Part shown: positions 1 through 18,539 of the stretch, piece by piece
Position numbering within the stretch: position 1 is the first letter of the stretch
Layout: every line of letters begins with the position of its first letter
Made by a program: the position numbers and the translations under genes
The notes under the pieces: generated by a model
Seen by the model: the letters and a program-made list of their open reading frames with translations, nothing else
Database searches by the model: none
What the model was told of the DNA's origin: nothing
Origin: Planctomycetota bacterium
GTDB taxonomy: Bacteria > Planctomycetota > Planctomycetia > Gemmatales > HRBIN36
Assembly (NCBI GenBank): GCA_014584395.1
Contig: JACTMY010000006.1
Span: 59,800 to 123,799 of the forward strand
Direction of reading: 5' to 3'
Length of the DNA: 64,000 bases

Positions 1-9
1 TTATCCGCG

Positions 10-252
10 ATGAGCGACGCACGCGACGATACGCCCGCCGGGGGTCTGAACCCGAACGCCCTGTCCGTGGCGAACGCGGCCCGGCTGCTGTCGAGGGTGG
101 GCGGCGAGCGGGTGACGGAGGAGATGATCCGGGCCGACCTGGCGGCGGGCGCGCCGGCGAACGCCGACGGGACGATCAACCTGGTGCACTACGCGGCCTG
201 GCTGGTTCGACAGGCTGGAGACCGGAGACTGGAGACCGGAGGTGAAGAATGA
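10..252 (+). CDS. Phage-associated small HTH-like protein (possible small-terminase/DNA-binding paralog)
   Basis: ATG-started ORF of 80 aa in very GC-rich DNA. It has an HTH-like stretch (LSVANAARLLSRVGG) and shares the motif LVHYAAWLV / LLRYVAWLV with the next ORF. It lies upstream of the terminase large-subunit remnant. Confidence 0.4.
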   Translation: MSDARDDTPAGGLNPNALSVANAARLLSRVGGERVTEEMIRADLAAGAPANADGTINLVHYAAWLVRQAGDRRLETGGEE

Positions 253-307
253 TGACCCGAACCGTGATTGGTTTTGCTACAGCCTCCAGCCTACGGACTC
301 CAGCCTA
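212..307. repeat. Cluster of CTGGAG/CTCCAG-containing direct and inverted repeats (candidate terminase or regulator binding array, cosB-like)
   Basis: TGGAGACCGGAG occurs twice at 14-bp spacing (216-227, 230-241). CTCCAGCCTA occurs twice at 14-bp spacing (284-293, 298-307). AGGCTGGAG (212-220) is the reverse complement of CTCCAGCCT (284-292, 298-306). The array sits immediately 5' of the Nu1-position ORF. Confidence 0.35.
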
Positions 308-645
308 TGCTTGACCCGCGGCGACTGCGACCGAGCGAACTCTGCCGCCTGCTGAACTCGACCCCGCTGGGCGAGGTTCTCAACGAGTGGCAGCTGTACC
401 GCCATCGCACGCGCGCGGGCCTGCGGATCGGCGACGCCCGCCACGTCGACCTGCTGCGGTACGTCGCCTGGCTGGTGAGCATCCGGCACGCCCCGAAGCG
501 GGAGCCGGAGAGCGACCCCTACGAGACGCTGAAGGCCCGCGCCTTGGCTCAGAGCATCGCCCAGTCGATTGTCGAGCCTATTCCGACCACAAAACGATCT
601 TACCGGGCCCTTGCAACAGTGGAGCCGCTAGTGCCGATGAGCTAG
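307..645 (+). CDS. Putative phage terminase small subunit-like HTH protein (Nu1 position)
   Basis: The ORF begins with ATG at 307 (the track starts it at TTG 268). It has an N-terminal HTH-like segment (PSELCRLLNSTPLGEVLNEW). Its C-terminal part runs into the GC drop at about 650, so it may be truncated. It lies directly upstream of the GpA remnant. Confidence 0.4.
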   Translation: MLDPRRLRPSELCRLLNSTPLGEVLNEWQLYRHRTRAGLRIGDARHVDLLRYVAWLVSIRHAPKREPESDPYETLKARALAQSIAQSIVEPIPTTKRSYRALATVEPLVPMS

Positions 646-681
646 AATTCAGTCAGTTTTTCAACGGACACCGGAGACAAG

Positions 682-1182
682 TCACAGAAGCTCACAGTTA
701 TAGTCGGACGCATAAAAGATCACTACGGACGTTCCGGTTTCAGGAAGAGGTGCTCCACGAAGGTCTTCACGATCCGCCGCTTCTTTCCGTTCGACCAATT
801 TTCCTTCGGGATTAACAAAGGCGTAGTGTATCTCAATTCCGAATGTGCCATCAGCGTCGCTGCCGCCGGTGCAAGAAATGATCTGTCCAGGCACAACGCG
901 TCCATGGTCTCGGCGTAACTTGGCGCGATAATATGAGCGCAAAGCCAGAGCTGCACAAAGGCCCGCCAAGGCCATGAAGAAAAACCCTCCAACGAGCGCA
1001 TTCTGATTTCCTCCTTCCTGCCTCCAATTCGCACCAAAGTAAAACAGCGCCACTAACACAAAGAACACGATGCCGGTGCAGGCTACCCTCGTTGTATTCC
1101 AAAGAGAACCAGGAATCGCACAGTTTCCTGCCAAGAAATCGCGGTTTTCCGGGTGAAATACAAAAATGTCCTTGTACATCAT
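682..1182 (-). CDS. DUF3592-like membrane protein (two N-terminal TM helices plus a beta-rich C-terminal domain)
   Basis: 166-aa ORF in a clearly lower-GC patch (about 650-1380). It has two hydrophobic helices (GIVFFVLVALFYFG; VGGFFFMALAGLCAALAL). The C-terminal domain resembles DUF3592, a call made from memory. Confidence 0.5.
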   Translation of the reverse strand: MMYKDIFVFHPENRDFLAGNCAIPGSLWNTTRVACTGIVFFVLVALFYFGANWRQEGGNQNALVGGFFFMALAGLCAALALRSYYRAKLRRDHGRVVPGQIISCTGGSDADGTFGIEIHYAFVNPEGKLVERKEAADREDLRGAPLPETGTSVVIFYASDYNCELL

Positions 1183-1380
1183 GTTCCTGCTCCCACAACC
1201 GAACCACTGTCTCTGTCACCGCCTTCAGGGCTGCGGTGTTTGGCAACCCGCATAGGCGAAGACTCAACTAATGTGTTTCCCGAAATAAAAGTTGCATTTG
1301 GTAAAAGAGTTTCCGCGCAATCGCACCTCGGTAGCAAGTTTAGCTCACTCTTTGGCCCTCCACAAAAACGCGATAGATGA

Positions 1381-2173
1381 GATGTTGGCACACAATCGCT
1401 GGCAGACTTCACCGGCTACGTCATCGACTACGGCACCTACCCGGACCAGAAGCGGCCGTACTTCACGCTCCGCGACGCCCGGCACACGCTGGCCGTCGCG
1501 ACCAAGGCCAGCGGCCTGGGGGGGGGCGATCTACGCCGGCTTGGAGACGCTGACCCAGGACTACCTCGGCCGCGAGTGGCGGCGGGACGACGGGGCGATG
1601 CTGCGGATCGAGCGCTGCCTCATCGACGCCAACTGGGGCTCCTCGACCGACATCGTTTACCAGTTCTGCCGGCAGTCGGCGTTCGCCGGGATCGTCCTGC
1701 CGAGCCACGGGCGCTTCGTCGGCGCCTCAAGCCAGCCGTTCTCCGAGTACAGGCGGAAACCCGGCGACCGCGTGGGGCACAACTGGCGAATGCCCAACGT
1801 GCAAGGCAAGCGGGCCGTGCGCCATGTGCTGTACGACACGAACTACTGGAAGTCGTTTATCCACGCGCGGCTGGCGGTGCCGATGGGCGAGCGGGGCTGC
1901 CTGTCGCTCTTCGGCGACAAGCCCGAGCAGCATCGCTTGTTCGCCGACCATCTCACCGCCGAGTACCGCGTGAAGACCGAGGGGCGCGGCCGCACGGTCG
2001 ATGAATGGAAGCTGCGGCCGGAGCGTGCCGACAACCACTGGCTTGACTGCCTCGTGGTCTGCGCCGTGGCGGCGTCGATTCAAGGGGCCGTGCTCTTCGG
2101 CACGGACGGCCAGGCGCCAGCGAAGCGCGAGCGCGTCAGCTTAGCCGAACTCCAGCGGAGGAGGCGGCGATGA
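1381..2173 (+). pseudogene. Phage terminase large subunit (lambda GpA family), C-terminal half only, frameshifted
   Basis: The translation IDANWGSSTDIVYQFCRQS...HNWRMPNVQGKRAVRHVLYDTNYWKSF...WKLRPERADNHWLDCLVVCAVAA is typical of the GpA C-terminal (nuclease) half. The upstream homologous part (ADFTGYVIDYGTYPDQKRPYFTL) is in another frame, and the frame change coincides with a run of 9 G at 1518-1526. The ATPase half is absent. Confidence 0.8.
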
Positions 2174-2370
2174 GCATGATGCGGCCCAAGCGAGATGAGC
2201 TGGGCATCCGCTGCCCGCGGTGCGGCTGCCGGCATCTTAAGACCACCCACACCGAACCGCTGCGCAACGGCCGCATTCGCCGCCGGAAAGTCTGCCGCCA
2301 TTGCGGTCGGAAGATGGTCACATTCGAGGCCCCGCCTGCCGTTCTCCAGGGGCCGGATTGCTACAGGTAG
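2170..2370 (+). CDS. Small C4 zinc-ribbon protein (Ogr/Delta-like)
   Basis: 66 aa with CPRCGC...CRHCG followed by VTFE. Its ATG overlaps the terminase stop (ATGA), which implies co-transcription with the packaging genes. Confidence 0.55.
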   Translation: MSMMRPKRDELGIRCPRCGCRHLKTTHTEPLRNGRIRRRKVCRHCGRKMVTFEAPPAVLQGPDCYR

Positions 2371-2472
2371 CAAGCTGCCCTTCTTTTTCTTCGCTCGCTG
2401 CGTCATCTCGCGCCCGAATTGCAAAGGTCTATCTGTAGAGGCCGGCGTCCCGCCTTTCACGGAGCGACATTC

Positions 2473-2670
2473 ATGGCCGACGAACTCGACGACACGATTC
2501 GCCAGAACGCCCAGGGGCCGGCCAAGGCCTCCGGCGACGCCGGCAGCGTCGAGCAGCACCCGCTGCCCGACCAGATCGAGGCGGACCGCTACCTCGCCGC
2601 AAAAGAGGCCGCCAAGGACAAGAAACGCGGCCTGCGCTTCAACAAGTTCGTGCCGCCAGGGGCCAACTGA
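2473..2670 (+). CDS. Phage head-tail joining (gpW-position) small protein
   Basis: 65 aa starting MADELDD, with a GGAG motif upstream. It lies between terminase and portal as gpW does in lambda, and has a C-terminal RGLRFNKFVPPGA tail. The assignment is mainly positional. Confidence 0.45.
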   Translation: MADELDDTIRQNAQGPAKASGDAGSVEQHPLPDQIEADRYLAAKEAAKDKKRGLRFNKFVPPGAN

Positions 2671-3040
2671 GTGTTCCGTTGGTTGTCCAATCTGTTCACG
2701 CCCAGAGCCGTGGGACATTCCCCACGTCGCGCTCCCCGGCTGCTCCGTGCTCGCTACGACGCGGCCGTGACCACGGACGACAACCGCCGGCACTGGGCCA
2801 ACGCGGATGGCCTGTCCGCCCATGCTGCTAACAGCGCCGAGGTCCGGCGCATCCTGCGGAACCGAGCGCGTTACGAGGCCGCCAATAACAGCTACACGCC
2901 CGCGGCATCGTCCTGACGCTGGCCAATGACGTGATCGGCACCGGCTCGCGACTCCCACTGCTCTCCGACAAGCCCGAAACGAACCGGCGAATGGAGTACG
3001 AGTCGGCGCGATCGGCGACAACCAGGTGGTTGCTTGAGAA
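2671..3040 (+). pseudogene. Phage portal protein (lambda family), N-terminal fragment, frameshifted and truncated
   Basis: YDAAVTTDDNRRHWANADGLSAHAANSAEVRRILRNRARYEAANNSY matches the lambda-type portal N-terminus. The homology continues in another frame (RGIVLTLANDVIGTGSRLPLLSD) and stops at the GC drop near 3040. Confidence 0.7.
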
Positions 3041-3070
3041 GAAAACAACGTCCGATCATTCTCGGATGAG

Positions 3071-4414
3071 TCAGGGTTTCTTCGGAAGCTCAGCAGCGTA
3101 TGACCGCATCAGTTGCTGTAAACTGGCTTTCTCCTGCTGAGGTAGGTTGTCGATATAGTCAGCTTCCCAGAACAAGATCTGTTTGGCTCCTAAAGCCGAC
3201 GCACGTTGCAGTTCCTGACGAAAGCTGTCTGGATTGTTGGGAACCCAAGCATAAAGCCAGACATCCACCTTCCCCCCAGTAAGCTCTTTGAGATGATTAA
3301 ACGCCTTCTCAGGAGTGCCTCCCCCTGTGTAATAGCCTGCCGCCACCACAGAATCCATGAGCTTTTCTTTGGCCCATGTTGCAACATCGAGATGCAGCCC
3401 CCGGAGATTGTCCGCATATTTGGGGTTTCCACCGCGATAGCCCCAGGGATGATGCACCATCACGGCAATAGGCAACCCAGGTTGGAGTCGATCGCACAGT
3501 TTTCGGACCGCACGCATGAACTCGGTGTAGGGTTCCGCCCGATGACGCACCCAGCGCTCATCATCGTTGGGCAAATCGCGAGGATCAATTTTGAACGATT
3601 GCTTGAAACGATCAATCAGAATTTGTTCATATCCATAAACAGCGTGTCCTGATTGATCCACTTGCAAATCTCGGACATCGCCAGTGCGAATCCAATCGAT
3701 GAAAATGCCATCGAAGCGATATTTCTCCAGCAACTCCTTGACGATCGACAGCTTATAGTCTCGAACCTCTGGCCAAGCGAAACTCAGCTGACTGCGAAAA
3801 AACGTGCCATCTTTCCGCCGCCAGCGATGTTCGGGATGCCGTAGAGTATACCGGCTCGGCCAGCCCCAGCCATGATCATCTTCGTTGAGGGTTAGCCATG
3901 CATGAACTTCAATTCCGATCTGGTGGCCATATTTCACAGCCTCCGCAGTGTAATCAATGGAATCATAGTGATAGCGCTCGCGAATTTTCTTAAGCATTGC
4001 CTCGTTTTTCGCAGCCCCTGCGATTCCGACCTCCTCAGGTTTCGGATTGAAATAATTGTCTGCCACCGGCATTCCCATTGGATCCATCAAGTTGCTAGGG
4101 TACAGCGATCGTCCTGCATCCAAGCACCTCCAATAGATGCGATTCCATCCGGCGGCTTTGCACATATTAAGCATGTGACGAACACCAGTGAGTTTGTCGT
4201 CAAGGCCGGGAACGTTGTCCTTGAGGATCCAGTCGGAGTGGGTCAATGGGGCACTGAGAATGAACTTCTGGTCCAGACCTTTAGGATCTTGAGACGGTGG
4301 ATTCTGAGCATAAGCCACCGTTGAGACAAGAGTCAGACCACTGACTGTGCTTAGCCAAAGGAGATAATGAAGAGGGCATATGCAGGGTATTCTTATCACG
4401 AGGAAAACTCCCAA
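3071..4414 (-). CDS. Secreted glycoside-hydrolase-like TIM-barrel protein (GHL10/DUF187-like)
   Basis: 447-aa ORF with an N-terminal signal-like segment (LLWLSTVSGLTLVSTVAYA). It has motifs such as IGIEVHAWLTL and FDGIFIDWIR. The family call is from memory. The start codon is uncertain (TTG at 4414 or a nearby GTG). Confidence 0.5.
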   Translation of the reverse strand: MGVFLVIRIPCICPLHYLLWLSTVSGLTLVSTVAYAQNPPSQDPKGLDQKFILSAPLTHSDWILKDNVPGLDDKLTGVRHMLNMCKAAGWNRIYWRCLDAGRSLYPSNLMDPMGMPVADNYFNPKPEEVGIAGAAKNEAMLKKIRERYHYDSIDYTAEAVKYGHQIGIEVHAWLTLNEDDHGWGWPSRYTLRHPEHRWRRKDGTFFRSQLSFAWPEVRDYKLSIVKELLEKYRFDGIFIDWIRTGDVRDLQVDQSGHAVYGYEQILIDRFKQSFKIDPRDLPNDDERWVRHRAEPYTEFMRAVRKLCDRLQPGLPIAVMVHHPWGYRGGNPKYADNLRGLHLDVATWAKEKLMDSVVAAGYYTGGGTPEKAFNHLKELTGGKVDVWLYAWVPNNPDSFRQELQRASALGAKQILFWEADYIDNLPQQEKASLQQLMRSYAAELPKKP

Positions 4415-4630
4415 TGCTTAAAAGTTGGCGTTCGATAACCTCGTCTGGGCCTAGGATCCAGAAACTGCTTCAATCCATCGCAACAATGATACTAAGCATA
4501 CTGGCCGAGCCGCTGGCCGGCATCCCGGTCAAGCTGCTGGGACAACACTGCCAAGGTCAAGGCTCAAAGCGACATGTTCGACTTGTTAATGTTTGAACTG
4601 ATTCAAGAAGCCTTCACCAAAAACGTTATC

Positions 4631-5119
4631 TTACAAGCCTTCCGCCCAGCGTTTCACGGTATCAGCATGCATTTGCCAAGCACTCCAGACAGAACGGGCC
4701 CATCCTTGAACCCTGCGGATATGATCCTCGAGATCCGTAGCATGGCAGATGTCTCGGATGGTGATGGTGCCCAGATCTTGAGGCGGTGTTAACCAACAAA
4801 ATCCGCCACGTTTGACCGCTTTGCCGATCTGGATGGTGATTGCCTTGGCCGGTAATCCTTTCTCGATCCGTGAACAGAGCCCAATGAGATGGATCGCCAC
4901 CGATTGGGTAGACTGACGAGATTCCGTTCCTGGGTGTTGGGCGGCGTAAGCATCGACGATGAGACGATGGATCTCGGGTTCGTTGAAATCCTCGTATTCC
5001 CTTGCCAAGACTTCCCCATAGGTTGTCCAACAGGCTGCTGAAGCGCCAATGTAGGGGTGGGTGGGACCGTCGCACCGATCGAACCGGGCGCGACAGCCGG
5101 GGCAAATTTCATCGTCCAT
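4631..5119 (-). CDS. DUF5946 family protein
   Basis: Taking the ATG at 5119 (GGAG upstream), the protein starts MDDEICPGCRARFDRCDGPTHPYIGASAACWTTYGEVLAREY...VDAYAAQHPG, a motif pattern characteristic of DUF5946. Confidence 0.6.
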   Translation of the reverse strand: MDDEICPGCRARFDRCDGPTHPYIGASAACWTTYGEVLAREYEDFNEPEIHRLIVDAYAAQHPGTESRQSTQSVAIHLIGLCSRIEKGLPAKAITIQIGKAVKRGGFCWLTPPQDLGTITIRDICHATDLEDHIRRVQGWARSVWSAWQMHADTVKRWAEGL

Positions 5120-5265
5120 CTCAAACTCCGTTGCCCGACGAGCCAGCAAGCGCGACAACCTCCAACACCAGACAGTCAATCTCGGTGGAAGGTTCACCGC
5201 GTCCCAAGGTGCTCAAGTAATTTGGAGGCGGCGGGTGCTGTCGAAGTTCGGGGCGTTCGTGCGGG

Positions 5266-6585
5266 TTACTTCAGCTTGAGCGTGTACTTGTAACAATCGG
5301 CGGCCGTCCACTTGGCTGGGTCGGGGTCTTCGCCGTAGGTGGTGAGATACAACTCCAGATGATGCGTTTTGCGGTCTTCGAGCAGCGAAAAATTCGAGAA
5401 CTGAATGTCGCCCTGCCCCTCACGTCGATCATCAATTAATGTCACGGTCGCTTTCATCAACAGCCCGGTTTTGTCGTCGACTTCCGCGATCACCAGCGGG
5501 TACCGAGGCGAATTGCCGCTCGGTGGTTGATTGGTGATGTTACCGAGCCAGTACAGCTTCCCGGTGATGCTGTGGCGAATCATCCGGTGGTACGACGAAG
5601 GAGAATAGAATGCCGTGCCGTCGTCATACGTCCAGATCGCCGGGGCCGAAAGCGTTTGGCCGTTGTCGTTCGAGATGCTGAAAAACTTGTGGCCAGGTAG
5701 CTTGGAGTTGGAACCACGCCAGACGACTAAGAGCCGGCCATCGGTCAGCTCGGCGACTTCGGGTTCCATCAAACCCCGGGATGATTCGTCGGGGGTAATC
5801 TCCACTCGTGCTCCCGCTCGCCAGTCGTAGTCCTTGCGGTCAGCGTTCCATTTCCCGACAAAAAGCACGGAACCCATTCGCCAAGCCCGCTGATGATTCA
5901 GTTTGTCGTGGGGAGCATTGGCGTGGGCCAAGACGGTCACGAGCGTACCGTCTTTACGGCGGAGGATGTTGTTGCCGAAGTAGCCTTCGTTGTGGTTGAG
6001 GAACGTCGCTTGGAGCGGATTCTCGCGATCAAAATCCGTGCCGTTGTTCTCGTAGCGAAGCAGTTGAGGAGCCGTCCACGTCTGTCCCAAATCTTTGGAA
6101 TAGCGGACATATGTGTGGTTGTGCCAGAGGTTCCCCTCTTGCACTTGGCGAAGCCAGAGTTGCACGAGCCAGCCGGAAGCTGGGTCATACTCACACGCGC
6201 CCTCAGTTTCATGGACAGGAATTCCTTTGATGAGTTTCTTGGAGGAGGGCACAATCTTTTTCAACTCGCTCCAGGTTTGGCCATTGTCGGAAGACCAGCG
6301 AGCCAGCACGTTGTCCGCCACGTCGCTTTCGGTTTCCTCCGCGAAGATTTCCCGCTTTTCCAGCTTAGGCCCCACGTAGGTAACGGAAACCAGCGGTGCT
6401 TGATTCGGGTTGCTTCGTTTGCGATACAGTTCTTTGTGAACCGTGACGATCGGCGTGTTCGTTTTCCAAGGTGTCTCGGTCGAGGGGCGGGGTGGTTCGG
6501 CTGCTTGCACAAGAACCGAGAACAGCAGGAGCAACGCGATGGCTCGGCGAAACAAACAGGTCAACATCGGATTCTCCAAAGCCAT
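5266..6585 (-). CDS. Secreted BNR-repeat sialidase / exo-alpha-sialidase-like glycosidase
   Basis: It has a signal peptide (AIALLLLFSVLVQA) and three Asp-box/BNR motifs (SSDNGQTWS, SKDLGQTWT, SNDNGQTLS). Confidence 0.75.
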   Translation of the reverse strand: MALENPMLTCLFRRAIALLLLFSVLVQAAEPPRPSTETPWKTNTPIVTVHKELYRKRSNPNQAPLVSVTYVGPKLEKREIFAEETESDVADNVLARWSSDNGQTWSELKKIVPSSKKLIKGIPVHETEGACEYDPASGWLVQLWLRQVQEGNLWHNHTYVRYSKDLGQTWTAPQLLRYENNGTDFDRENPLQATFLNHNEGYFGNNILRRKDGTLVTVLAHANAPHDKLNHQRAWRMGSVLFVGKWNADRKDYDWRAGARVEITPDESSRGLMEPEVAELTDGRLLVVWRGSNSKLPGHKFFSISNDNGQTLSAPAIWTYDDGTAFYSPSSYHRMIRHSITGKLYWLGNITNQPPSGNSPRYPLVIAEVDDKTGLLMKATVTLIDDRREGQGDIQFSNFSLLEDRKTHHLELYLTTYGEDPDPAKWTAADCYKYTLKLK

Positions 6586-6639
6586 GCAGTGACTACTTGT
6601 GTTGCGATTCCACTGAGTATCGGCATGCTGCGGTGATCA

Positions 6640-7281
6640 TACCCGCGGTGTTTTATTGATCTGATCTGTTAGTAGTAGTCCAAGGTCGCTGTGGCATGAC
6701 GGGCCTGCTTCGGCAACTCTGACGAACGAGTGCCCCATGCCGAAAGAGGGCGACCAAGCACATGGGCTTCGGCGTGAACCAGCCCGGCAACCGGGAGGAC
6801 GGCACCGTCGCCGAGCGGGAGAACGGCCACGGCCAACTGCGGATGGTCCTGAGCGTCTCGTCCGGCGATTCCGGCGGCGGCATCTTCCAGGCCGATACGA
6901 ACTGGTGTCGGTGGTCTGCTGCACTAGCGGCATGTCCTGCAAGGTGTCGATGTGGGGCTGCTCGGCCGAGGTCGCACGACGCACCTGCCCCAAGCCGGCC
7001 GAAGCCGACGAGGCCTGGGTACCGGTCCCCATTCCCATCTGCAAGGACGGCAAACGCACGGACACCGGCGGCGAATGGAGGCCGCACCCGATCTCGATCC
7101 GCACCGTGAGTTCAGCCACGAAGTGAGGGCCAGCGATGCACAGCTTTCAGGACAACGCCGTGCGGACCTGGACGGTGGCCATCAACGTGGCGCTGGTCAA
7201 GCGCGTCCGGGGATTGCTCGACCTAAACTCTTCAAGCTCCTGGACGACGGGGCCAAGCCGCTAGGCGAGGCGAGCTTCTAG
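6640..7281. pseudogene. Degraded GC-rich phage-derived segment (mutually overlapping broken frames; includes a MHSFQDNAVRTWTVAINVALVKRVR fragment at 7135-7281)
   Basis: There is a sharp GC rise after the sialidase gene. No single clean frame is present: the minus-strand reading MAELTVRIEIG... changes frame mid-way. The plus-strand fragment at 7135 loses its frame after about 30 codons. Phage origin is inferred from composition and context. Confidence 0.3.
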
Positions 7282-7598
7282 CCGACCCGGACAAAGCCGA
7301 CGTGTCTTCCACTCGGCCACATCCCGACCCCTCCGAGAAATCCGCCGACCGATGCGTCATCCGGCGCGCGAACTGGAAAGCTCTTCAGTAGAGGGACACA
7401 CGCCAAGACAGCAGAGATCGCGAATTCCACCACCGACGTTCGCGCGGTTCCGGTAGCTGAACAAGGGAGGGGCCGCATCGCCGTTTGAGATCTTCCAGCG
7501 ACGCGGACAACCTGTTCGCGGACGGCATAGGTAACGGTCGGGCACTGCGCATGAGGGACATCATGAACGAACCAACTCCAGACCGGGCCGGCGCGGCG

Positions 7599-7730
7599 AT
7601 GAGCGACACCGTCGCGGACGCCTGGGCCGCGTCGATCCAGGGCGTCATCCTCCCCGGCACCGGTGGACGCGAACCGGTCAAACGCGGCCGCGTCAGCTTT
7701 CGGGACTTGCAGAAGAAGTCCCGGACGTGA
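7599..7730 (+). pseudogene. Second terminase large subunit C-terminal tail fragment
   Basis: ADAWAASIQGVILPGTGGREPVKRGRVSFRDLQKKSRT* aligns with the end of the first remnant, CAVAASIQGAVLFGTDGQAPAKRERVSLAELQRRRRR* (ending at 2173). Confidence 0.5.
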
Positions 7731-7816
7731 TCAGGGCGAACGGATCCTCTCCAACCCACCGGCTTAAGACTTTTGCGGTGAATCACGCGCGAAACGACAC
7801 GATTGATCGGCGTGTT

Positions 7817-8302
7817 TCAAGTGAGGCTTGCTGATCGCTTCCAATCCATCAATTGGCCGAGGTGATACGACTCGTGGGCTGCTAGTAGGTAGACAATGAT
7901 TCGGCCAACGCTGGGTGCGAATTGATCAAACGGGGCTGGTGGAGTCTTAGAAAAGTAGTCCTGATGCTTGGCCCGGACGACGCGTTCAACAATCTCGTGT
8001 CGACGTGTCAATCGGCTAATGAGTTCTGCCTTAGTTGCGTATCTGCTGGGGTCCGCGATTGGTACGGAACCTGGGCCGTAAAGCTCCATGTCTTGATCGC
8101 CAACATCATCACATGGCTCATCGAGCAGAGTCGTTATGAACGCTGCGGCATGGGCCACATGGCTAAGCGTCCAAGCGGGGTGATTGACCAGCCCGGCGGG
8201 TTGCGCGGTCATTGCTGATTCCGGGATGCGAGCAACCGCTTCAACGAAATCGTTGAGCGAAGCTGAATACAAGTCCAAGATCCGTTCCAAGTGGTTCATC
8301 AT
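7817..8302 (-). CDS. DinB/YfiT-like metal-dependent hydrolase family protein
   Basis: 161 aa with a DinB-like four-helix pattern (HPAWTLSHVAHAA ... AHESYHLGQL). It is the last gene of a four-gene minus-strand operon. Confidence 0.7.
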   Translation of the reverse strand: MMNHLERILDLYSASLNDFVEAVARIPESAMTAQPAGLVNHPAWTLSHVAHAAAFITTLLDEPCDDVGDQDMELYGPGSVPIADPSRYATKAELISRLTRRHEIVERVVRAKHQDYFSKTPPAPFDQFAPSVGRIIVYLLAAHESYHLGQLMDWKRSASLT

Positions 8303-9225
8303 TTCTCCAAGGAACGCACGACATACGCCGCGTAGCTATCAAGGATTGCCTGCCAGCCGGATCGCTGCATCTCCACGGGATTGCTCTGCTCCGGGTCGAA
8401 TACGGTCTGCACACGTGTGCCGATCCCTTCCGGGGTAAAGGTGGTGCGGACGCCACGGCCATCATCGAGACGCAACGTCACGGCGTGAGGGGCGTCCACC
8501 TCTTCGTAAGTGCCTTCGTACTCGAAGCCGAAGGAACCATCGCGGGCCTCCATGCGGGAGACATGCCGACCACCCACACGCAGATCGACCTGGGACCACG
8601 GGCAATGCCAGTCGGGGCTGGCCTGGTTCCACTGCGTGATGGCCTCAGGTGTATTGAACGCTTGCCACGCCTGCTCGGGCGGAACGGGAACGAATGCCTC
8701 GATGGTGATGGGTTGCGACATGGCCTGTCCTTGTGAGTTGGGAGGTTGGTGTCCTCGGCGTGCCGCATCAATGGCGGCAACGTCAATCTTGCGCATGGTC
8801 ATCATGGCGGCAAAAGCCCGTTTGGCTTCGTCTCCACCGGCGGCCAATGCCTCGGTCAGCGTGCGCGGGATAATCTGCCAGTTGACACCCCAGCGGTCTT
8901 TGCACCACCCGCATTCGCTTTCCTGTCCGCCATTTCCCACAATCGCGTTCCAGTAGCGATCGGTTTCTTCCTGATCCTCCGTGGCGATCTGGAACGAAAA
9001 CGCCTCCGTCTGCGGGAACATTGGCCCGCCGTTCAGCCCGATGCACCGGACGCCACACACGGTGAACTCGACGACGAGCACCTCGCCCGCCTTGTTGCCG
9101 GGGTTGTCCATTGGCGAGCGGTGGATCGCACCCACGTGGCTATCGGGAAAGACTGAGGCGTAGAACCGGGCGGCTTGCTCGGCTTCGCGGTCGTACCAGA
9201 TGCAAATGGTGTTTTTGGCGATCAT
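8299..9225 (-). CDS. Fusion protein: VOC/PhnB-like (3-demethylubiquinone methyltransferase-like) domain plus SRPBCC/AHSA1 domain
   Basis: ATG at 9225 is preceded by AGGAG. The N-terminal half (IAKNTICIWYD...GWCKDRWGVNWQI) is PhnB/VOC-like. The C-terminal half (ITIEAFVPVPPEQAWQAFNTPEAITQW...) is Aha1/SRPBCC-like. No stop codon lies between the two halves. The 84-codon upstream extension shown in the track was rejected. Confidence 0.65.
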   Translation of the reverse strand: MIAKNTICIWYDREAEQAARFYASVFPDSHVGAIHRSPMDNPGNKAGEVLVVEFTVCGVRCIGLNGGPMFPQTEAFSFQIATEDQEETDRYWNAIVGNGGQESECGWCKDRWGVNWQIIPRTLTEALAAGGDEAKRAFAAMMTMRKIDVAAIDAARRGHQPPNSQGQAMSQPITIEAFVPVPPEQAWQAFNTPEAITQWNQASPDWHCPWSQVDLRVGGRHVSRMEARDGSFGFEYEGTYEEVDAPHAVTLRLDDGRGVRTTFTPEGIGTRVQTVFDPEQSNPVEMQRSGWQAILDSYAAYVVRSLEK

Positions 9226-9280
9226 GAGTACTCCTGTCGGGATGGTTCTATTGTGCGATTGTTGACAACGGTGATGGTTT

Positions 9281-9664
9281 TCAGCGCGCTTGCTCATCGG
9301 GCTGAAAGATACCGAAGGTGTTGCCCGCGGGGTCAATGAAGTAGCCCTGCCAGCAGCGTCCGGGAACAGCAAACTTCGGCATGGCTTCGCGACCGCCTCC
9401 GCGGATAATTGACTCAGCGGTGGAGTCGAAGTCGTTGACTTGGATGGAACACACGAAGGCGTTCGTCCCACAGCCATCAGGCGGTGTTGAGGCGGGACGT
9501 TTCAGCAGGCCCCCGGCGATTCCCGTGGTCTCGATGCGCCAATACTCGACCGGCAAGCCATCCTGCCTGAGGAACCGCCAGCCGAACAGAGTGCCGTAGA
9601 ACGTGGCCAACGCCTGCGGATCAGCGGCTTGAATCTCGAAGTAGCTGATATTGTTCATACTCAT
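9281..9664 (-). CDS. VOC family (glyoxalase/bleomycin-resistance fold) protein
   Basis: 127 aa with ISYFEIQAADPQALATFYGTLFGW...GYFIDPAGNTFGIF, typical of VOC proteins. Confidence 0.75.
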   Translation of the reverse strand: MSMNNISYFEIQAADPQALATFYGTLFGWRFLRQDGLPVEYWRIETTGIAGGLLKRPASTPPDGCGTNAFVCSIQVNDFDSTAESIIRGGGREAMPKFAVPGRCWQGYFIDPAGNTFGIFQPDEQAR

Positions 9665-10284
9665 CTTCGGCTTCCTGATTTGAGAAGAGGGAATAGTTGC
9701 TCGACATAACGCTTCAAATGCCTAATCGCCTCATGCACGACCTGTGGATCGTTCAAGGCTTTTGCGAGCACGAAGGCCCCTTGCAGCACGACTTGCGTTT
9801 GCTGCGCCAAGCTCTCGGCAGTCCACTTGGCCTGCGGAGCATACTTGGCCTTGGCAGCTCGGATCGTCGGTATCAGTGTTTGTATGTGCCCGTGCATCCC
9901 GGCGCCGCACGCCGCCTGAAGTACCGGGTGGCTGGCAAACGTCTCCTGCACCAAAGTCCCGAGCAAACAAGTAAATTCGGGGAGTTCTCCCCGCACGAGT
10001 TCCCCTCGGAAGTCGAGGTACGCCAACAGTCGCGCCCGGGGATCCTCCACCTGCCAGTACGGTGCGTTGGCGAACAACGCTCCCGTGAAACTGTTCCAAT
10101 ACTCAATCGCTGCAAGCGCGACCGATTCCTTGCTTTCGAAGTGGTGAAAGAAGGCTCCTTTGGTGACACCAGCCGCACGGCACAAATCATCCACCGTTGT
10201 TGCGGCGTAGCCCTGACAACGAAAGACATTCAATGCAGTTCCAAGAATCCGCTGCCTGGTTTGTTCTCCACGAGTGTCTGACAT
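9661..10284 (-). CDS. TetR/AcrR family transcriptional regulator
   Basis: It has an N-terminal TetR HTH (RQRILGTALNVFRCQGYAATTVDDLCRAAGVTKGAFFHHFESKE). It overlaps the next gene by 4 nt. Confidence 0.85.
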   Translation of the reverse strand: MSDTRGEQTRQRILGTALNVFRCQGYAATTVDDLCRAAGVTKGAFFHHFESKESVALAAIEYWNSFTGALFANAPYWQVEDPRARLLAYLDFRGELVRGELPEFTCLLGTLVQETFASHPVLQAACGAGMHGHIQTLIPTIRAAKAKYAPQAKWTAESLAQQTQVVLQGAFVLAKALNDPQVVHEAIRHLKRYVEQLFPLLKSGSRR

Positions 10285-10291
10285 GATATAA

Positions 10292-10313
10292 ACATACCAA
10301 CTGGTTGGTATGT
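10292..10313. promoter_or_regulatory. Candidate TetR operator: perfect 10-bp inverted repeat ACATACCAAC-tg-GTTGGTATGT
   Basis: The palindrome lies 8 nt upstream of the tetR start codon (10284, minus strand), at the head of the tetR-VOC-fusion-dinB operon. Confidence 0.6.
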
Positions 10314-10354
10314 GTTCAAGGCCATTTTGGGGATTTTTTGCGTCCCCTGAGTCG

Positions 10355-11040
10355 AGGAGCAGTGGATCGACTTCAAGAACTTCTTCATCGACACCTTCTA
10401 CCTACCGGGTGGTCTGCGGCCTGGCCCGCTTCCTCAACGACGCCTGGGCCGGCATCCCGGTCGCCTGGGTCGAGACGGTCAGCTTCCTCGGCACCGCCTG
10501 GACGAACTTCATCGGCGTCTTGCAGAAGGCGTGGAACCGCTTCAGCGGCTTCTTCAAGAAGGTGTGGGCGCGGGTCAAGAGCGTGTTCACCGGCAAGGAC
10601 GCCGGCGAGGAGATCGCCCGCATCAACGACGAGATCGCCGCCGAGGACAACGCCATCAACGCTCGCCGGGACGCCGCCGTCAACGAACGGGAGACGGAAC
10701 GTCAACGCCGCCGAGCGGCCATCGAGGGCGAACGCGCCGGGGTCGAGGACGAACTCAACCGCATGCAGCAGGCCGAGCGGGCCGAGCGCGAGAAGCGCAA
10801 GCAGGAGACGCTCGCGGCCGGCGAGGCCGACATCGCCGCCGCCCGCAAGGAGTGGGAGGAAGCCCTGGCCGAGGCCAAGCGGAAGCGCGAGGAGGCCGAC
10901 GCCCGGCTTCCAGGGGGCCGTCGGCGTGGTCTGCCCGGACCTGTGCCGGGGCGAAAGCACGTCAGGCGAGGGGTGCGACTGCCCGTCGGCGGAATCGGTG
11001 CCGGCCGTCGTGCTCTTTGGAGTCATGGACTCACTAGCTC
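10355..11040 (+). pseudogene. Phage tail tape-measure protein fragment
   Basis: This is a GC-rich segment. Its coiled-coil, Ala/Glu/Arg-rich translation (FIGVLQKAWNRFSGFFKKVWARVKSVF...INDEIAAEDNAINARRDAAVNERETERQRRRAAIEGERAG...AAARKEWEEALAEAKRKREEA) is typical of tape-measure internal regions. There is a frame change near 10397, and neither a credible N-terminus nor C-terminus. Confidence 0.5.
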
Positions 11041-11049
11041 GAATAGGGC

Positions 11050-11081
11050 TTGACTCTGTAGTATGGTACAGGGTCGATAAT
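11050..11081 (+). promoter_or_regulatory. MerR-type promoter/operator: TTGACT, a 19-20 bp spacer containing the dyad CTGTAg-tatg-gTACAG, then GATAAT
   Basis: The layout closely mirrors the Tn21/Tn501 mer operator (TTGACTCCGTACATGAGTACGGAAGTAAGGT, quoted from memory). An over-long spacer is the hallmark of MerR-activated promoters. It lies 26 nt upstream of the merR ATG. Confidence 0.6.
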
Positions 11082-11106
11082 GGAGAAAGACGAAGGAAGC
11101 CAGACC

Positions 11107-11535
11107 ATGACCATCAAGCCATTGACCATCGGGCAGGTTGCCCGGCGTTCCGGCGTGGGCATCGAGACGGTGCGGTTCTACGAACGGGAAGGACTGCTTG
11201 CCAAGCCGGAACGCACCGTGTCTGGCTATCGGCAGTTCGATGAGGAAGTCATTGCCCGCTTGCTGTTCATTCAGCGTGCGAAGGAACTCGGTTTCACGCT
11301 TAACGAAATCAAGGAACTTCTTTCCTTGCGGATTGATCCCGACACGTCTTGCGACGATGTGAAGGCCAGAGCAGAAATCAAGATTGCCGACATTGAGGAC
11401 AAAATCAGGACATTGCAGCGGATGAAGAAAGCACTGGTACGGCTGACCCAAGAGTGTTGCGAAAAAGGCGGCGGTTCGGAGTGTCCCATCCTTGACGCAC
11501 TGGATGGACACCCCCGCAGTTCAAGAAAGGAATAA
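11107..11535 (+). CDS. merR: MerR family heavy-metal-responsive transcriptional regulator (Hg-type Cys triad)
   Basis: ATG at 11107 with GAAGGAAG upstream. It has an N-terminal MerR HTH (LTIGQVARRSGVGIETVRFYEREGLL). Cysteines lie at the MerR-like positions (..DTSCDD.., ..QECCEKGGGSECP..). The stop overlaps the next ATG (TAATG). Confidence 0.8.
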   Translation: MTIKPLTIGQVARRSGVGIETVRFYEREGLLAKPERTVSGYRQFDEEVIARLLFIQRAKELGFTLNEIKELLSLRIDPDTSCDDVKARAEIKIADIEDKIRTLQRMKKALVRLTQECCEKGGGSECPILDALDGHPRSSRKE

Positions 11536-12710
11536 TGAGCATGACAACTACCACAGCGACGGCTACGGATTGCCCGAAGTGCGGCAAGAAGGGAAAGACC
11601 GTCAAGCCTGTGACCCTTCGGGCGTTGCTCAAGGATGAGTACGCTGCGGCGGTTGCCGTTGCAGACGAGTCGAATTGCGAATCCGGTTGTACCCCTTCCA
11701 AAGGAAATACCGGCTGGCGGTTTTGTGACTCGCCCGAATGCGACGTGGTGTACTTCGGGGAGCAGAACGGTATCACGTTCACCAAAGATCAACTCAAGGT
11801 TGCAGTCGGTGTGAAGGAAACAACGGGGGAACGCCCCCTTTGCTATTGCTTCGGTCACTCCGTCGCCACGATCACCAGCGAACTTCGACTGAAAGGCCAG
11901 TCGGACGCCTTGGCGGACATTCGCACAAAGATGAAAGACCCCGGCTGTTCGTGCGAGGTCACGAATCCGTCCGGGTCATGCTGTCTTGGCACTGTCGCCA
12001 AAGGCATCGAAACTGCAAAGGCTGAACTCACCCCGATAGCCCCCGTCATTTCATCAGGAAACAAGGCCGAGACGATTACAAAAATTGGAACGGTCCTGTC
12101 GGCAATCATCGCCTCAAGCTGCTGCTGGTTGCCGTTGCTGCTGTTGGCCTTCGGCGTCTCAGGAGCGGGAATCGCCGGGGCGTTGGAAGCGTATAGACCG
12201 CTCTTCATCGTGCTGACCTTCGGCTTCTTGGCGGCGGCGTTCTACTTTACCTACCGCCCCCGAAAGTCACCCACCACGGAAAGCAACTGCTGTTCCACCG
12301 CCCATGACTGCTGTGCCGTTCCGCAAAAGGAAACTAAGCAGCGGTTCTCCATGATAACCATGAACAAGATCATGCTATGGGGCGTGACGCTGCTGGCGGC
12401 GCTGTTTCTATTTTTCCCGAAGTACGTCAGCTTCTTCATGGCGAGCCAAGAGGCTGAAAGCGAAACCACGGCCACAAGCCCGCTTGTCACAAAGACGACC
12501 ATCGCCATCGAAGGGATGACCTGCGAAGGTTGCTCCGTCGCTCTGGAAAAATCAATCAGAGGCGTGCCGGGAGTGTTGAGTGCCAAAGTGGATTTCAAGA
12601 ACAAGCAAGCCGTGGTGTCCACCGAAGCCTGTTGTCCATTCCCTCAAGATCAAATCCTCAAAGCTATCGAAGATGCCGGGTTCGCAGGATCGTTGGTAAC
12701 GCCTCAGTGA
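11535..12710 (+). CDS. Three-domain fusion: N-terminal Cys-rich metallochaperone-like domain (CopZ-N-terminal/2Fe-2S-like), MerT-like transporter and C-terminal HMA (MerP-like) domain
   Basis: aa 12-152 carry CPKCG, CESGC, CDSPEC, CYC, CSC and SCC clusters. aa about 185-300 align with MerT: the TM1 vicinal pair SSCCWLPLLLLAFGVSGAG, then EAYRPLF, a loop with NCCSTAHDCC, and a third TM ending FFPKYVSFF. aa 320-391 carry the HMA motif GMTCEGC. Confidence 0.75.
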   Translation: MSMTTTTATATDCPKCGKKGKTVKPVTLRALLKDEYAAAVAVADESNCESGCTPSKGNTGWRFCDSPECDVVYFGEQNGITFTKDQLKVAVGVKETTGERPLCYCFGHSVATITSELRLKGQSDALADIRTKMKDPGCSCEVTNPSGSCCLGTVAKGIETAKAELTPIAPVISSGNKAETITKIGTVLSAIIASSCCWLPLLLLAFGVSGAGIAGALEAYRPLFIVLTFGFLAAAFYFTYRPRKSPTTESNCCSTAHDCCAVPQKETKQRFSMITMNKIMLWGVTLLAALFLFFPKYVSFFMASQEAESETTATSPLVTKTTIAIEGMTCEGCSVALEKSIRGVPGVLSAKVDFKNKQAVVSTEACCPFPQDQILKAIEDAGFAGSLVTPQ

Positions 12711-12850
12711 ACCGCGTGATTTCTCAAATCGTCGATCCTGTCGTCCAGTACCGCACCCAGAACATCGGCGACGACATCTAGTCGCTGGCTTTTGAATATT
12801 TCCTGCCCCGTGTTGATTTGCGGATGAGTAACCTATCGACTCTCCGCTGT

Positions 12851-13156
12851 TCACGGGTTGTCATGCGGCGGCACAAGCGCCACTTTCTGCCATTGCTGAT
12901 TTTCCGTCTCCGGTCCACGAACATTGACACTGTCAATTCGCCGCACGGCCACGATCCCGGGTATACGGTGCAGTGTCCGCCCGATGACCGCGTGGGTCGT
13001 CCGGATCGGATCGACTGCGGTGACGTTCTCGTACAGATCGCGTACATACTCCTGGGGATACGCGGTCATGATGGCTTGAATGACATTATGGGAATCGAAC
13101 GAGTCGGGCATCCGACTGACGACGATCGCAAGAATCGAATCAGTCAGGTGTGTCAT
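12851..13156 (-). CDS. Hypothetical protein (101 aa)
   Basis: ATG at 13156 is preceded by GAGGAG at good spacing. The amino-acid composition looks natural, while the 143-aa ORF on the opposite strand looks like a shadow. I recognised no family. Confidence 0.5.
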   Translation of the reverse strand: MTHLTDSILAIVVSRMPDSFDSHNVIQAIMTAYPQEYVRDLYENVTAVDPIRTTHAVIGRTLHRIPGIVAVRRIDSVNVRGPETENQQWQKVALVPPHDNP

Positions 13157-13351
13157 TGTCGGCTCCTCAACATGGGTTTCACCGGTGAACTGACAACCTC
13201 ACGGCTGGACTCCAGAACGACCGGCACACTCTCTACCCGCGAGAACTGAGAAATCGCTGCGAGCAAAGCACTATTTTGAAGAAGATATGAAGATTTTCAA
13301 GGCGGCTGCTTCCGCCCCGCTCCGCGACGCCGTTCGGAGGTTCGTGGACTC

Positions 13352-13700
13352 ATGAAGCTCGCCGCGCTCTGCTGCACGTTCCACCGGCCGCACCTGCTCA
13401 GCCAGTTGGTCGAGTCGTTCCTCCGCCAGGACTACCTGCGGCACCTGCGGGAGTTGGTCATCCTCGAAAACGCCGGCTACCGCGACCTGGGCAAGAAGGC
13501 CACCAAGGGCAGGCACAAGCTCCAGCCCGGCTGGCCCCGTGACTTCACCAAGCTGCCCGTGGTCAAGCGGTTCACTTGCGCCCCGCACGTCTCCCACCGC
13601 GACGGCTAGTTGCCGGTCGAGTTGATCGGCCCGGTCCACGCCCCCGGCCGCGACGGCCCGACCAACGGCATGTACGCCCTGCAAAAGGAACTCCGTTAGC
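13352..13700 (+). pseudogene. Glycosyltransferase gene scraps (GT2-like N-terminus plus an unrelated C-terminal scrap)
   Basis: MKLAALCCTFHRPHLLSQLVESFLRQDY..RELVILENAG resembles a GT2 N-terminus but degenerates after about 45 codons. The following frame reads LPVELIGPVHAPGRDGPTNGMYALQKELR*. The segment is GC-rich like the phage fragments. Confidence 0.4.
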
Positions 13701-13983
13701 TAACGCAGACACTCGCCGACCATCGACCCGCTGTCCTTCCGAAGAGGGTGCGGTTCGCCCGTGACCAACCGAACGGTTGGCCGCTCGGGAGCGATGCCGA
13801 CAAGGCTATAACCCGAACGTGGGAACAGGGCCGAGACACCGAGAGTTTCCCCGATCCCTCCGGGCCAGTAGTCGTGGGTATGTCTCCACCCCAGCATGGG
13901 GAGAGACAACGGCAGAGCCTCGGGTGACGGGTAAACCCTTGCGGTGATGGGCGTAAAACGCGGAGGTGAGGCGATGAAAGTCT

Positions 13984-14010
13984 CCGACCCGGCGTGAACC
14001 GCCGGGTCGG
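13984..14010. other. Perfect GC-rich hairpin CCGACCCGGC-gtgaacc-GCCGGGTCGG, 26 bp from the tRNA 3' end
   Basis: The inverted repeat was read directly from the sequence. Neither side has a clear U-tract. Its function is unknown; it may be an attachment-site or terminator remnant. Confidence 0.3.
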
Positions 14011-14035
14011 GAAGTTGCTTGGAGCGTTGGGTCAG

Positions 14036-14108
14036 TACCCCCGGCAGGATTCGAACCTGCGACCCTCGGTTTAGGAAACCGATGCTCTATCCCCTGAGCT
14101 ACGGGGGC
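14036..14108 (-). tRNA. tRNA-Arg (anticodon CCT)
   Basis: The reverse complement folds as a cloverleaf: GCCCCCG TA GCTC AGGGGATA GAGC A TCGGT TTCCTAA ACCGA GGGTC GCAGG TTCGAAT CCTGC CGGGGGT A. That is 73 nt with a GTTCGAATC T-loop, anticodon CCT and a G1-U72 wobble. CCA is not encoded. Confidence 0.9.
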
Positions 14109-14233
14109 GCGGTATCACCATTCTATGGGTTGACTTGCCGCCGCGACAGCATTCCTTGCTTGGCCATCGCGGGTTCCATTGAACGTTCCACGGCGTCGTG
14201 TGGTCGCTCATCTCATGGATAGACCGCCCACCA

Positions 14234-14764
14234 TCATTTGGCGTTCGGTGGATGGGGTTGCCAGGCAAACAGGGCCAGGGCTAAGAACGCGCACAGCAGC
14301 GTGACCATGTCGCAGATCAAGCTGTAGTTATGCAGCAGACTGAACGATGTCTCTGCCAGCTTGGCTTTTTCCACGTCCTGATCGTAACGCTGCAGCCGCA
14401 CTTCATGGACCTTGGGCGCGAAGACGACCAGGTTCAGCGTCGCCAGCCCCAAGGCCAGGCCGAGCAGGCCAATCCGTGTCTTCTGTATGAAGCCCGGACT
14501 AGAGTAGAGCAGCAGGCCCGTCAGGGTGGCGACCACGCCGCAGGCCACTTGCCAGGGAAAATACCGGGCGAACACCACATCCAGAGCCTCCCCCGCCATG
14601 CGAACGCCCTGCTTCTCATCGGTAAATCCGGCCCAATTGCCCGCCGTGGAGGCTAATTCACGCATCCGAGCAATGATCGGCAAGGCCGTGAAGAATCCGA
14701 AAAAAGTGCTCGAACCAACCCACAAGCCCAACGACAACATGTGCAGCATTTTGATCCAATTCAT
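14234..14764 (-). CDS. DUF4149-like integral membrane protein
   Basis: ATG at 14764 is preceded by AAGGAG. The 177-aa protein has four hydrophobic helices (MNWIKMLHMLSLGLWVGSSTFFGFF...). The 316-aa form in the track has an Arg/Pro-rich N-terminal extension that overlaps plsY and was rejected. Confidence 0.6.
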   Translation of the reverse strand: MNWIKMLHMLSLGLWVGSSTFFGFFTALPIIARMRELASTAGNWAGFTDEKQGVRMAGEALDVVFARYFPWQVACGVVATLTGLLLYSSPGFIQKTRIGLLGLALGLATLNLVVFAPKVHEVRLQRYDQDVEKAKLAETSFSLLHNYSLICDMVTLLCAFLALALFAWQPHPPNAK

Positions 14765-18538: not shown

Positions 18539-18539
18539 G

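Follow-up and report, generated by a model that had tools for sequence, protein, structure and literature searches.

A probable graveyard of at least two related prophages, interleaved with accessory genes, beside a tRNA-Arg(CCT) gene of a Planctomycetota bacterium

How did scraps of phage genes come to alternate with bacterial accessory genes over 14 kb beside a tRNA gene? The locus lies at the left end of the stretch analyzed here (the window), i.e., 64,000 nucleotides of the genome of a Planctomycetota bacterium (GenBank assembly GCA_014584395.1, contig JACTMY010000006.1, positions 59,800 to 123,799). The tRNA-Arg(CCT) gene, detected by ARAGORN and as the sole match of an Rfam search (RF00005, 70 bits), occupies 14035-14108 on the reverse strand, and its 3' end, at 14035, points at the region 1-14034. 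The original prediction, made from the sequence alone, described this region as an island formed either by the decay of at least two tandem prophages or by repeated replacement of phage DNA by cargo. Our analyses suggest that both alternatives apply, and that 1-14034 is in all probability a prophage graveyard, in which at least two related temperate phages, lying head to tail beside tRNA-Arg(CCT), were replaced stepwise by accessory (cargo) genes. The region shows the features by which a defective prophage is recognized: homologues of phage structural and packaging genes, retention of phage map order and orientation with minor exceptions, and inactivating lesions together with an incomplete gene set.

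Phage-derived DNA amounts to approximately 4.3 kb of this region, in 12-13 pieces of 37-1670 nt that all lie on the forward strand, and approximately 9.2 kb of accessory DNA stand between them, in six cargo blocks. When the segments were split by homology, the guanine-plus-cytosine (GC) content was 67.1% for the phage pieces, 54.8% for the cargo and 59.0% for the core part of the window (14109-64000); the phage pieces exceed the 99th percentile of 1-kb core windows (1st-99th percentile, 51.1-64.1%), and both pooled sets stand apart from the core in tetranucleotide distance (phage pieces, z = 6.2; cargo, z = 9.7). The mean GC content of the whole island equals that of the core (0.589 vs 0.590); the variance alone differs, with a local range of 0.49-0.70. 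Hence, the profile is non-uniform in the way that had been foreseen, with phage pieces above and cargo below the core. To the right of the tRNA, between 14.2 and 64 kb, lie core genes (PlsY, lipopolysaccharide (LPS) heptose genes, HldE, LpxK, FeoB and TopA) that show no similarity to phage DNA, and a PlsY scan of genome contigs found its closest relatives at 45-47% amino acid identity, all in metagenome-assembled genomes (MAGs) of Planctomycetota.

The pieces can be read against the genomes of an uncultured phage family. The terminase fragment of the window gave 145 IMG/VR matches, the best 80 of which (65-90% protein identity) were used, and the tape-measure fragment added 13, giving 93 viral loci, cited below by our L numbers. 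The phage pieces are 75-94% identical at the nucleotide level to IMG/VR contigs with genes for terminase, portal, capsid-protease and tape measure; hence, the expectation that the phage-like translations would find phage matches was borne out. Genomes of the family share the order helicase, primase, HNH, ParB-methyltransferase, GpA terminase, portal, protease-capsid fusion, tape measure and glycosyltransferases. L162 encodes a portal (phrog_21, E = 2e-62), the protease-capsid fusion, a head decoration protein and the tape measure, and L082 carries helicase, primase/polymerase, HNH endonuclease and ParB-methyltransferase genes just upstream of the terminase. Since these replication genes lie, in the family, immediately upstream of the gene that corresponds to the first open reading frame (ORF) of the window, we conclude that the island starts to the left of window position 1. 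In L162, a trypsin-like peptidase gene (7010-8059; PF13365) precedes the tape measure, and in both closest reference contigs (L162 13368-16824; L161 12660-17285) the tail genes are succeeded by genes for glycosyltransferases, LicD and polysaccharide pyruvyl-transferases, which belong either to the phage or to a host flank. Among the cultured phages of INPHARED, a megablast search with the island matched the tRNA alone, and tblastn with the terminase fragment reached at most 31% identity.

The window pieces fall into two remnants with different nearest relatives: remnant A (1-7304) is approximately 80% identical to L082/L085, and remnant B (7491-13699) is 92-94% identical to L161/L162. Remnant A matches L082 in ascending order at 6611-6826, 6819-7088, 8322-10005, 14611-14646 and 15643-15801, and remnant B likewise ascends through L162 613-813 and 9948-10509 and then L161 9598-9684, 11905-11990, 12622-12785 and 13242-13474. 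Moreover, a terminase C-terminus occurs once in each remnant, and the second copy shares only 69% identity with the first (at 2062-2142). The two colinear series, the distinct nearest relatives and the diverged terminase tails show that two phages of one family lie here in tandem and in the same orientation. Deletions after successive integration at one site, or after homology-driven integration into a remnant already in place, would fit this arrangement.

The pieces themselves were identified by Pfam and PHROG profiles and by blastn, tblastn and tblastx comparisons of window positions 1-14200 with the IMG/VR relatives. Direct profile confirmation was obtained for three of them, i.e., the GpA nuclease domain, the Zn-ribbon ORF and the tape measure (weak match). 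Remnant A begins with a full-length ORF of 80 amino acids (10-252; 79-93% nucleotide identity to L085, L082 and L260) that in the family stands just upstream of the terminase; it aligns over its full length with the L082 homologue (the blastn match spans 9-225) and has no Pfam or PHROG match. Of the predicted pair of small helix-turn-helix (HTH) genes, the first is this family ORF, for which an HTH fold could not be confirmed, and the second (268-642) is the N-terminus of the large terminase GpA. The latter, approximately 90 codons long, spans 301-578 (blastn to L082 6819-7088). It is followed, beyond a cargo block, by the GpA C-terminal nuclease-domain fragment at 1405-2173 (PF20454 positions 123-288 of 294, E = 7e-19; phrog_15, E = 1e-26), which is 90% identical in amino acid sequence to L081-L084 and is frameshifted between 1512 and 1523 (tblastx coordinates). 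In tblastn with the full-length GpA of L098, residues 4-90 matched 313-573 at 76% and residues 530-751 matched 1493-2155. An apparent extension of GpA to the left of 1405 (tblastn residues 432-540, back to 1132) was rejected as an alignment overrun, as approximately 80 nucleotide alignments begin at 1398-1405.

Downstream in remnant A, a full-length Zn-ribbon ORF of 66 amino acids (2170-2370; PF22811, E = 2.9e-6) aligns end to end with its L082 homologue, and a second small full-length ORF (approximately 2470-2670), in the interval between terminase and portal, aligns to its stop codon with L082 9380-9601. This ORF has no family match; a phage ORF does occupy the predicted position, and the label "gpW-like" describes position alone. 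The claim that none of the pieces is intact was not upheld, as the ORFs at 10-252, 2170-2370 and approximately 2470-2670 are full length in comparison with their homologues. The portal N-terminus (residues 1-107; 2671-2996), recovered by a two-frame alignment to the L082 portal, is frameshifted near 2895; its blastn homology stops at 2996, and a weaker tblastx similarity continues to 3077. A 37-nt scrap of a gene of the head-tail region (5228-5264; L162 6188-6223) is 92-95% identical to L161, L163, L166 and L081, and in the contig L260, described below, it is contiguous with the phage module. The last piece of remnant A (6728-7304; 83-86% nucleotide identity to L162 7684-8202, L161 and L163), previously regarded as unassignable, comprises the 3' third of the trypsin-like peptidase gene together with the beginning of the gene that follows. 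A 31-nt repeat encoding "...Y(A/V)AWLV" is common to the small pre-terminase ORF (176-206) and the terminase N-terminus (446-476; 81% identity), with a weaker third copy at 7232-7262, in the 6728-7304 piece; it may be a shared protein motif.

Remnant B opens with a second GpA C-terminus (residues approximately 671-755, tblastn) and the start of the following region (7491-7810; 92.6% nucleotide identity to L162 629-763). An internal tape-measure fragment at 10340-10905 (phrog_24, E = 2.6e-5), frameshifted near 10401, is 94% identical to L162 9948-10509, a stretch that falls inside the tape-measure gene of L162 (8756-10732). It is followed by a scrap of approximately 90 nt (87-92 nt; 10917-11008) of a 661-amino-acid gene downstream of the tape-measure gene (92% identity to L162 12194-12280), by a scrap of a pyruvyl-transferase-like or glycosyltransferase gene at 12740-12826 (85% identity to L161 11905-11990) and, at 13304-13699, by two scraps (13304-13486 and 13454-13699) of a GT2 glycosyltransferase gene (91-95% identity to L161 12622-12785 and 13242-13474; L161 12660-14315 matches PF00535). 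Profiles and IMG/VR alignments thus agree with the original prediction as to the GpA C-terminus, the Zn ribbon, the portal N-terminus, the second terminase tail, the tape-measure core and the glycosyltransferase scraps; its list of pieces lacked the two scraps at 5228-5264 and 10917-11008.

The last demonstrable phage base is 13699, 335 nt short of the tRNA end; hence, the proposal that the island stops exactly at the tRNA was not borne out. The spacer (13700-14034), which has no family match, contains, immediately downstream of the tRNA gene, a hairpin near 13980-14012. It is common to the sister strains, by which we mean an NCBI MAG (GCA_013328875.1) together with several independent run assemblies from Logan, represented in this part of the window by six sister contigs.

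The decay of both remnants is extensive. The large genes are truncated or frameshifted (the latter in the pieces of GpA, portal and tape measure), GpA has lost its ATPase domain, and no capsid gene was found in 1-14034 by Pfam and PHROG profile searches. One deletion can be reconstructed: the two GT2 scraps join at approximately 13463-13477, where 456 bp have been lost between 15-nt direct repeats, and the repeat, CTCGACGACGCCGGC, is present at both deletion ends in L161. The remaining junctions are abrupt and show no common motif. The nonsynonymous/synonymous ratio between the pieces and their references is 0.08-0.33 for most pieces. Hence, most of the divergence predates inactivation, and the fragmentation is comparatively recent.

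The cargo blocks interrupt this scaffold, and most of the cargo is antisense to the phage genes. Cargo block 1 (579-1404; 50.8% GC), with a membrane-protein ORF at 682-1182 on the reverse strand, replaces GpA codons approximately 90-500, i.e., the ATPase domain, and L082 7089-8321 has no counterpart here. Since 301-578 is the GpA N-terminus, this block sits within the terminase gene, and its right breakpoint, at 1405, is sharp and common to approximately 80 loci. The membrane protein has just two distant homologues (58-60%). The only one that could be placed on a contig lies on L268 (345-845, 58% amino acid identity; Logan SRR27730036), where it adjoins a terminase C-terminal scrap (L268 1-66), with DUF4928, HNH, HTH and Vsr genes beyond. 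Cargo block 2 (3078-5227) consists of a GHL10 glycoside-hydrolase-like gene (3071-4414, reverse strand; PF02638, E = 2.6e-12) and a DUF5946 gene (4631-5197, reverse strand; PF19371 positions 2-141 of 141, E = 1.4e-33), which is complete in the window and truncated in the sister strains. Cargo block 3 (5265-6727) is a BNR/sialidase-like gene (5266-6585, reverse strand; PF13088, E = 1.3e-12) that stands in for approximately 1.46 kb of phage DNA. Its homologue P0002, 80% identical, lies in a plain chromosomal context, and the homologues of the BNR and GHL10 proteins come mostly from Planctomycetaceae, Pirellulaceae and similar MAGs. Given the planctomycete origin of most homologues and the chromosomal context of the BNR relative, the cargo looks like ordinary accessory genes of the wider lineage of the host.

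Remnant B carries the other three blocks. Cargo block 4 (7811-10339), present in every sister contig, encodes on the reverse strand (Pfam assignments; 7817-10284) a DinB protein (7817-8302), a fusion of 3-dmu-9_3-mt and AHSA1 domains (8299-9225), a glyoxalase (9281-9664) and a TetR regulator (9661-10284). The DinB gene is intact in the window but carries a frameshift in the sister strains (L174 10695-11181 corresponds to window 7817-8302), and we conclude that cargo genes decay too. The second ORF of the block, in its longest form (8299-9477), joins a 3-demethylubiquinone-9 3-methyltransferase-like (VOC-type) domain to an AHSA1/SRPBCC domain; the gene callers of the sister contigs start it at the equivalent of 9225 (308 amino acids). 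Cargo block 5 (11009-12739) encodes on the forward strand (Pfam; 11080-12710) a MerR regulator (11080-11535) and a zf_CopZ-MerT-HMA metal transporter (11535-12710). Cargo block 6 (12827-13303; 54.7% GC), delimited by a three-way alignment of the window, L254 and L161, occurs in the window only; its reverse-strand ORF (12851-13156) has neither a family match nor a viral relative.

Comparison with relatives at different stages of erosion indicates how such a mosaic could have arisen. On the Joint Genome Institute (JGI) contig L260, a BNR gene (P0001) 97% identical to that of the window lies inside a much fuller phage module that keeps the genes for portal, capsid-protease, cement and head-tail joining proteins as well as the first part of the tape-measure gene. 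The junctions are those of the window: phage DNA up to the equivalent of L162 6223, the BNR gene, and phage DNA from the equivalent of L162 7685, contiguous with the counterpart of the 6728-7304 piece; over window 5234-7042 the two are 93.7% identical. Hence, the substitution of the BNR gene for phage DNA is older than the loss of the portal-to-head-tail genes in the window. The terminase of L260 is mostly lost to a kinase-TPR gene, and the losses in L260 and in the window differ and are partly reciprocal.

The sister strains are 97.7-99.4% identical to window 7280-18920, and approximately 99.9% identical between divergent patches. Their differences from the window are patchy (3 in 2 kb between 8400 and 10400), with patches at 16687-16848, 7800-8400, 10600-10815 and 11767-11885, one of them in a core LPS-kinase gene; such a distribution is the pattern that would be expected of recombination imports. 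The sisters differ from the window at three places. The 477 bp of cargo block 6 stand where all six sister contigs keep 631 bp of contiguous phage DNA; inside the tape-measure piece, 84 nt in the window correspond to 17 nt in the sisters; and to the left of 7280 the sisters are wholly different, with portal, capsid and GpA scraps, a 696-amino-acid ORF and metal-efflux genes. The 696-amino-acid ORF (L254 12167-14257; 41-47% GC) has no Pfam match and is flanked by the GpA, capsid and portal scraps. Moreover, the GHL10 module (2839-4851) recurs at 98.3% identity in the sister contigs L262-L267, with other neighbors on either side and with homology ending at 4851. On L262 (JAANMY010002603.1), genes for Cas_GSU0053, Cas_GSU0054 and Cas3 (type I CRISPR-Cas) and a serine-recombinase fragment (1742-8767) lie among scraps of the same phage family, adjoining the GHL10 module. 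As anticipated, close relatives therefore do not conserve the gene order of the region, be they the sister strains, L260 or the carriers of the GHL10 module. An assembly chimera was considered as the source of the mosaic and rejected, as the junctions recur in the NCBI MAG, in several independent Logan run assemblies and in the JGI contig.

Taken together, these results point to a stepwise history. Each prophage would have lost the ability to excise ("grounding") and would then have been eroded by deletions, one of them between the 15-nt direct repeats. Accessory genes probably replaced phage segments step by step, and recently, some of them possibly as morons of members of the phage family; other cargo breaks up essential genes (terminase, portal, tape measure) and would therefore have entered after the prophages were immobilized. 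Selection may keep the accessory genes as the intervening phage DNA shrinks to scraps of 37-600 nt, and homologous recombination between strains and related remnants may shuffle modules made of cargo genes and adjacent scraps. Such shuffling would explain the differences in arrangement among closely related strains. The tRNA-Arg(CCT) gene may have been the original attachment site. The routes of phage integration and cargo entry are inferred, as no integrase, excisionase, attachment (att) repeat or transposase is found in 1-14034.

Several observations weigh against this reconstruction or complicate it. Pfam and PHROG searches revealed no integrase, excisionase or recombinase among the tested ORFs of 1-14034, in agreement with the original prediction; the region shows no similarity to the L262 recombinase and no transposase or repeats were found in it. 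A second copy of the tRNA 3' end was detected neither in the 64 kb at up to 3 mismatches nor in the repeat search, and because the island extends beyond the left edge of the window, a distal integrase or att site may lie to the left of position 1. None of the 93 related viral loci, mostly partial contigs, has a tRNA-Arg or a short blastn match to the tRNA region. L260 is itself defective and represents an earlier stage of decay, not a functional phage with a BNR gene. A counterpart embedded in a related phage element was found for only 2 of the 6 cargo blocks, and the four cargo proteins tested from the other four have zero IMG/VR relatives. Finally, map order is not perfect: 46 nt ahead of the second terminase tail (7350-7394) match 2396-2441, upstream of the ORF in the gpW position, at 80% identity, which hints at a further scrap or a rearrangement, and the sister strains have a capsid scrap ahead of a portal scrap. 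The region is likely to comprise more than two remnants or to have undergone additional rearrangements.

A further role of the scraps may be considered within the same history. They could act as portable homology arms, by which modules of cargo and scraps are swapped among prophages, remnants and incoming phages of the family; phage gene order would then be a shared scaffold for cassette exchange. The sharing of the 2839-4851 module, the BNR gene and scraps common to the window and L260, and the pairing of the membrane-protein gene with a GpA scrap on L268 are consistent with this idea, which we regard as tentative and rather unlikely.

Alternatively, all the cargo could consist of morons acquired by functional ancestral phages, in which case deletions alone, with no insertion after immobilization, would account for the region. 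Members of the family do carry accessory genes in a variable slot of 1.1-7.8 kb between the terminase/Zn-ribbon and gpW-position genes, with the flanking phage genes kept (L098 10803-14826; L107 10604-18436; L106 and L089 approximately 10806-11919), an unusual cargo site for a structural operon. The slots contain, among others, thioredoxin-like, MerT-HMA, ankyrin and PATR-repeat proteins, and that of L098 holds a MerR and zf_CopZ-MerT-HMA cassette with the architecture of cargo block 5 (53% amino acid identity). As is typical of morons, these accessory genes of L098, L107, L106 and L089 differ in composition from the conserved phage genes between which they lie and are mostly antisense to the late operon, and most of the window cargo is antisense as well. 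Unlike morons, however, the window cargo is mostly not intergenic and interrupts or replaces essential genes; cargo inside terminase, portal, tape-measure and glycosyltransferase genes is incompatible with a functional phage. In consensus scans, promoter and terminator sites were no commoner than in shuffled sequence, with the caveat that planctomycete promoters may not fit the sigma-70 consensus. The segment 12827-13303 is absent from the six near-identical sister contigs and must have arrived or been exchanged after grounding, and the proteins tested from four blocks lack IMG/VR relatives. We therefore consider it improbable that morons account for all of the cargo.

Could the accessory genes instead be the cargo of an integrase-mediated island or integrative element that targeted the 3' end of tRNA-Arg, with the phage scraps as later debris? 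The position of the region at the 3' side of a tRNA, its atypical composition, its accessory genes and its strain variability resemble tRNA-linked genomic islands, and a serine-recombinase fragment occurs in the related mosaic of the sister MAG (L262). Unlike in such islands, however, the scaffold is phage DNA, no integrase, relaxase or conjugation gene was found among the tested ORFs of 1-14034, and no att repeat was found in the window. Phage map order and orientation are kept over 14 kb, as expected if the phage is the scaffold and the cargo the insert, and in L260 the BNR gene lies inside a nearly complete phage head module; hence, an island of this kind appears very improbable. Nor does a single decayed prophage, the second terminase tail of which arose by internal duplication or rearrangement, account well for the data: all pieces share one orientation and one phage family, but identity between the two tails is only 69% (one is 92.6% identical to L162 and the other approximately 80%), and the nearest relatives of the two remnants differ (L082/L085 for A, L161/L162 for B), which makes this explanation most unlikely. 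Least credible of all is that the region is a reduced element of phage origin that still functions (a satellite, for example, or a cluster resembling a gene transfer agent) and keeps only the pieces it needs: three full-length small ORFs and nonsynonymous/synonymous ratios well below 1 would suit it, but, unlike phage satellites (PICI-like) or gene transfer agents, the region 1-14034 holds fragments and those three ORFs in place of an intact minimal gene set, lacks, in Pfam and PHROG searches, a capsid gene, a complete portal, a complete terminase, and tail, replication and integrase genes, has frameshifts in its large fragments and varies in content between near-identical strains, and the low ratios are explained by divergence before inactivation.

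The prophage-graveyard interpretation also agrees with what is known of other defective prophages. Cryptic ("grounded") prophages are hotspots of horizontal gene transfer, gene gain and gene loss (PMC6379469). Like the defective prophages of E. coli K-12, for example, the region has lost excision and particle production, has been eroded by deletions, varies in content between strains and carries inserted accessory genes (for stress tolerance, resistance or metabolism in cryptic prophages); it differs from them in its extreme fragmentation, in its two tandem remnants, in its origin from an uncultured phage family (nearest cultured terminase, approximately 30% amino acid identity) and in its host, a planctomycete in place of an enterobacterium. 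We conclude that the region is an ordinary, if well-resolved, example of prophage decay at a hotspot that varies between strains, and that no new mechanism is required.

The phage family itself combines a familiar plan with features of its own. In lambda, a small gene is followed by the gpA terminase, gpW, the gpB portal and the protease/capsid genes. The family has, in the same order, a GpA terminase with PF20454, a small gene between terminase and portal, a Phage_portal_2 portal, a protease-capsid fusion and a tape measure. Unlike lambda, with which it shares no sequence similarity, it has a Zn-ribbon gene after the terminase, a trypsin-like peptidase gene in the tail region, glycosyltransferase/pyruvyl-transferase genes after the tail and a replication module directly upstream of packaging.

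What the locus offers is an erosion series, which runs from L082, L162 and L098, where the flanking phage genes are kept, through the half-decayed L260 to the window and its sisters with their different losses. The series shows that phage genes are replaceable piecemeal while accessory genes persist, even between strains that are approximately 99.9% identical outside patches. Approximately two thirds of this "prophage" are ordinary accessory genes, for metal transport, detoxification-type enzymes and glycoside-hydrolase-like proteins, and prophage predictors would probably miss or overcall the region. The phage family from which the remnants derive is apparently abundant, as half of its terminase found more than 140 matches in IMG/VR. 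Its genomes are GC-rich, include glycosyltransferase genes and house variable cargo within the structural module. The family probably infects Planctomycetota, for which very few phages have been described.

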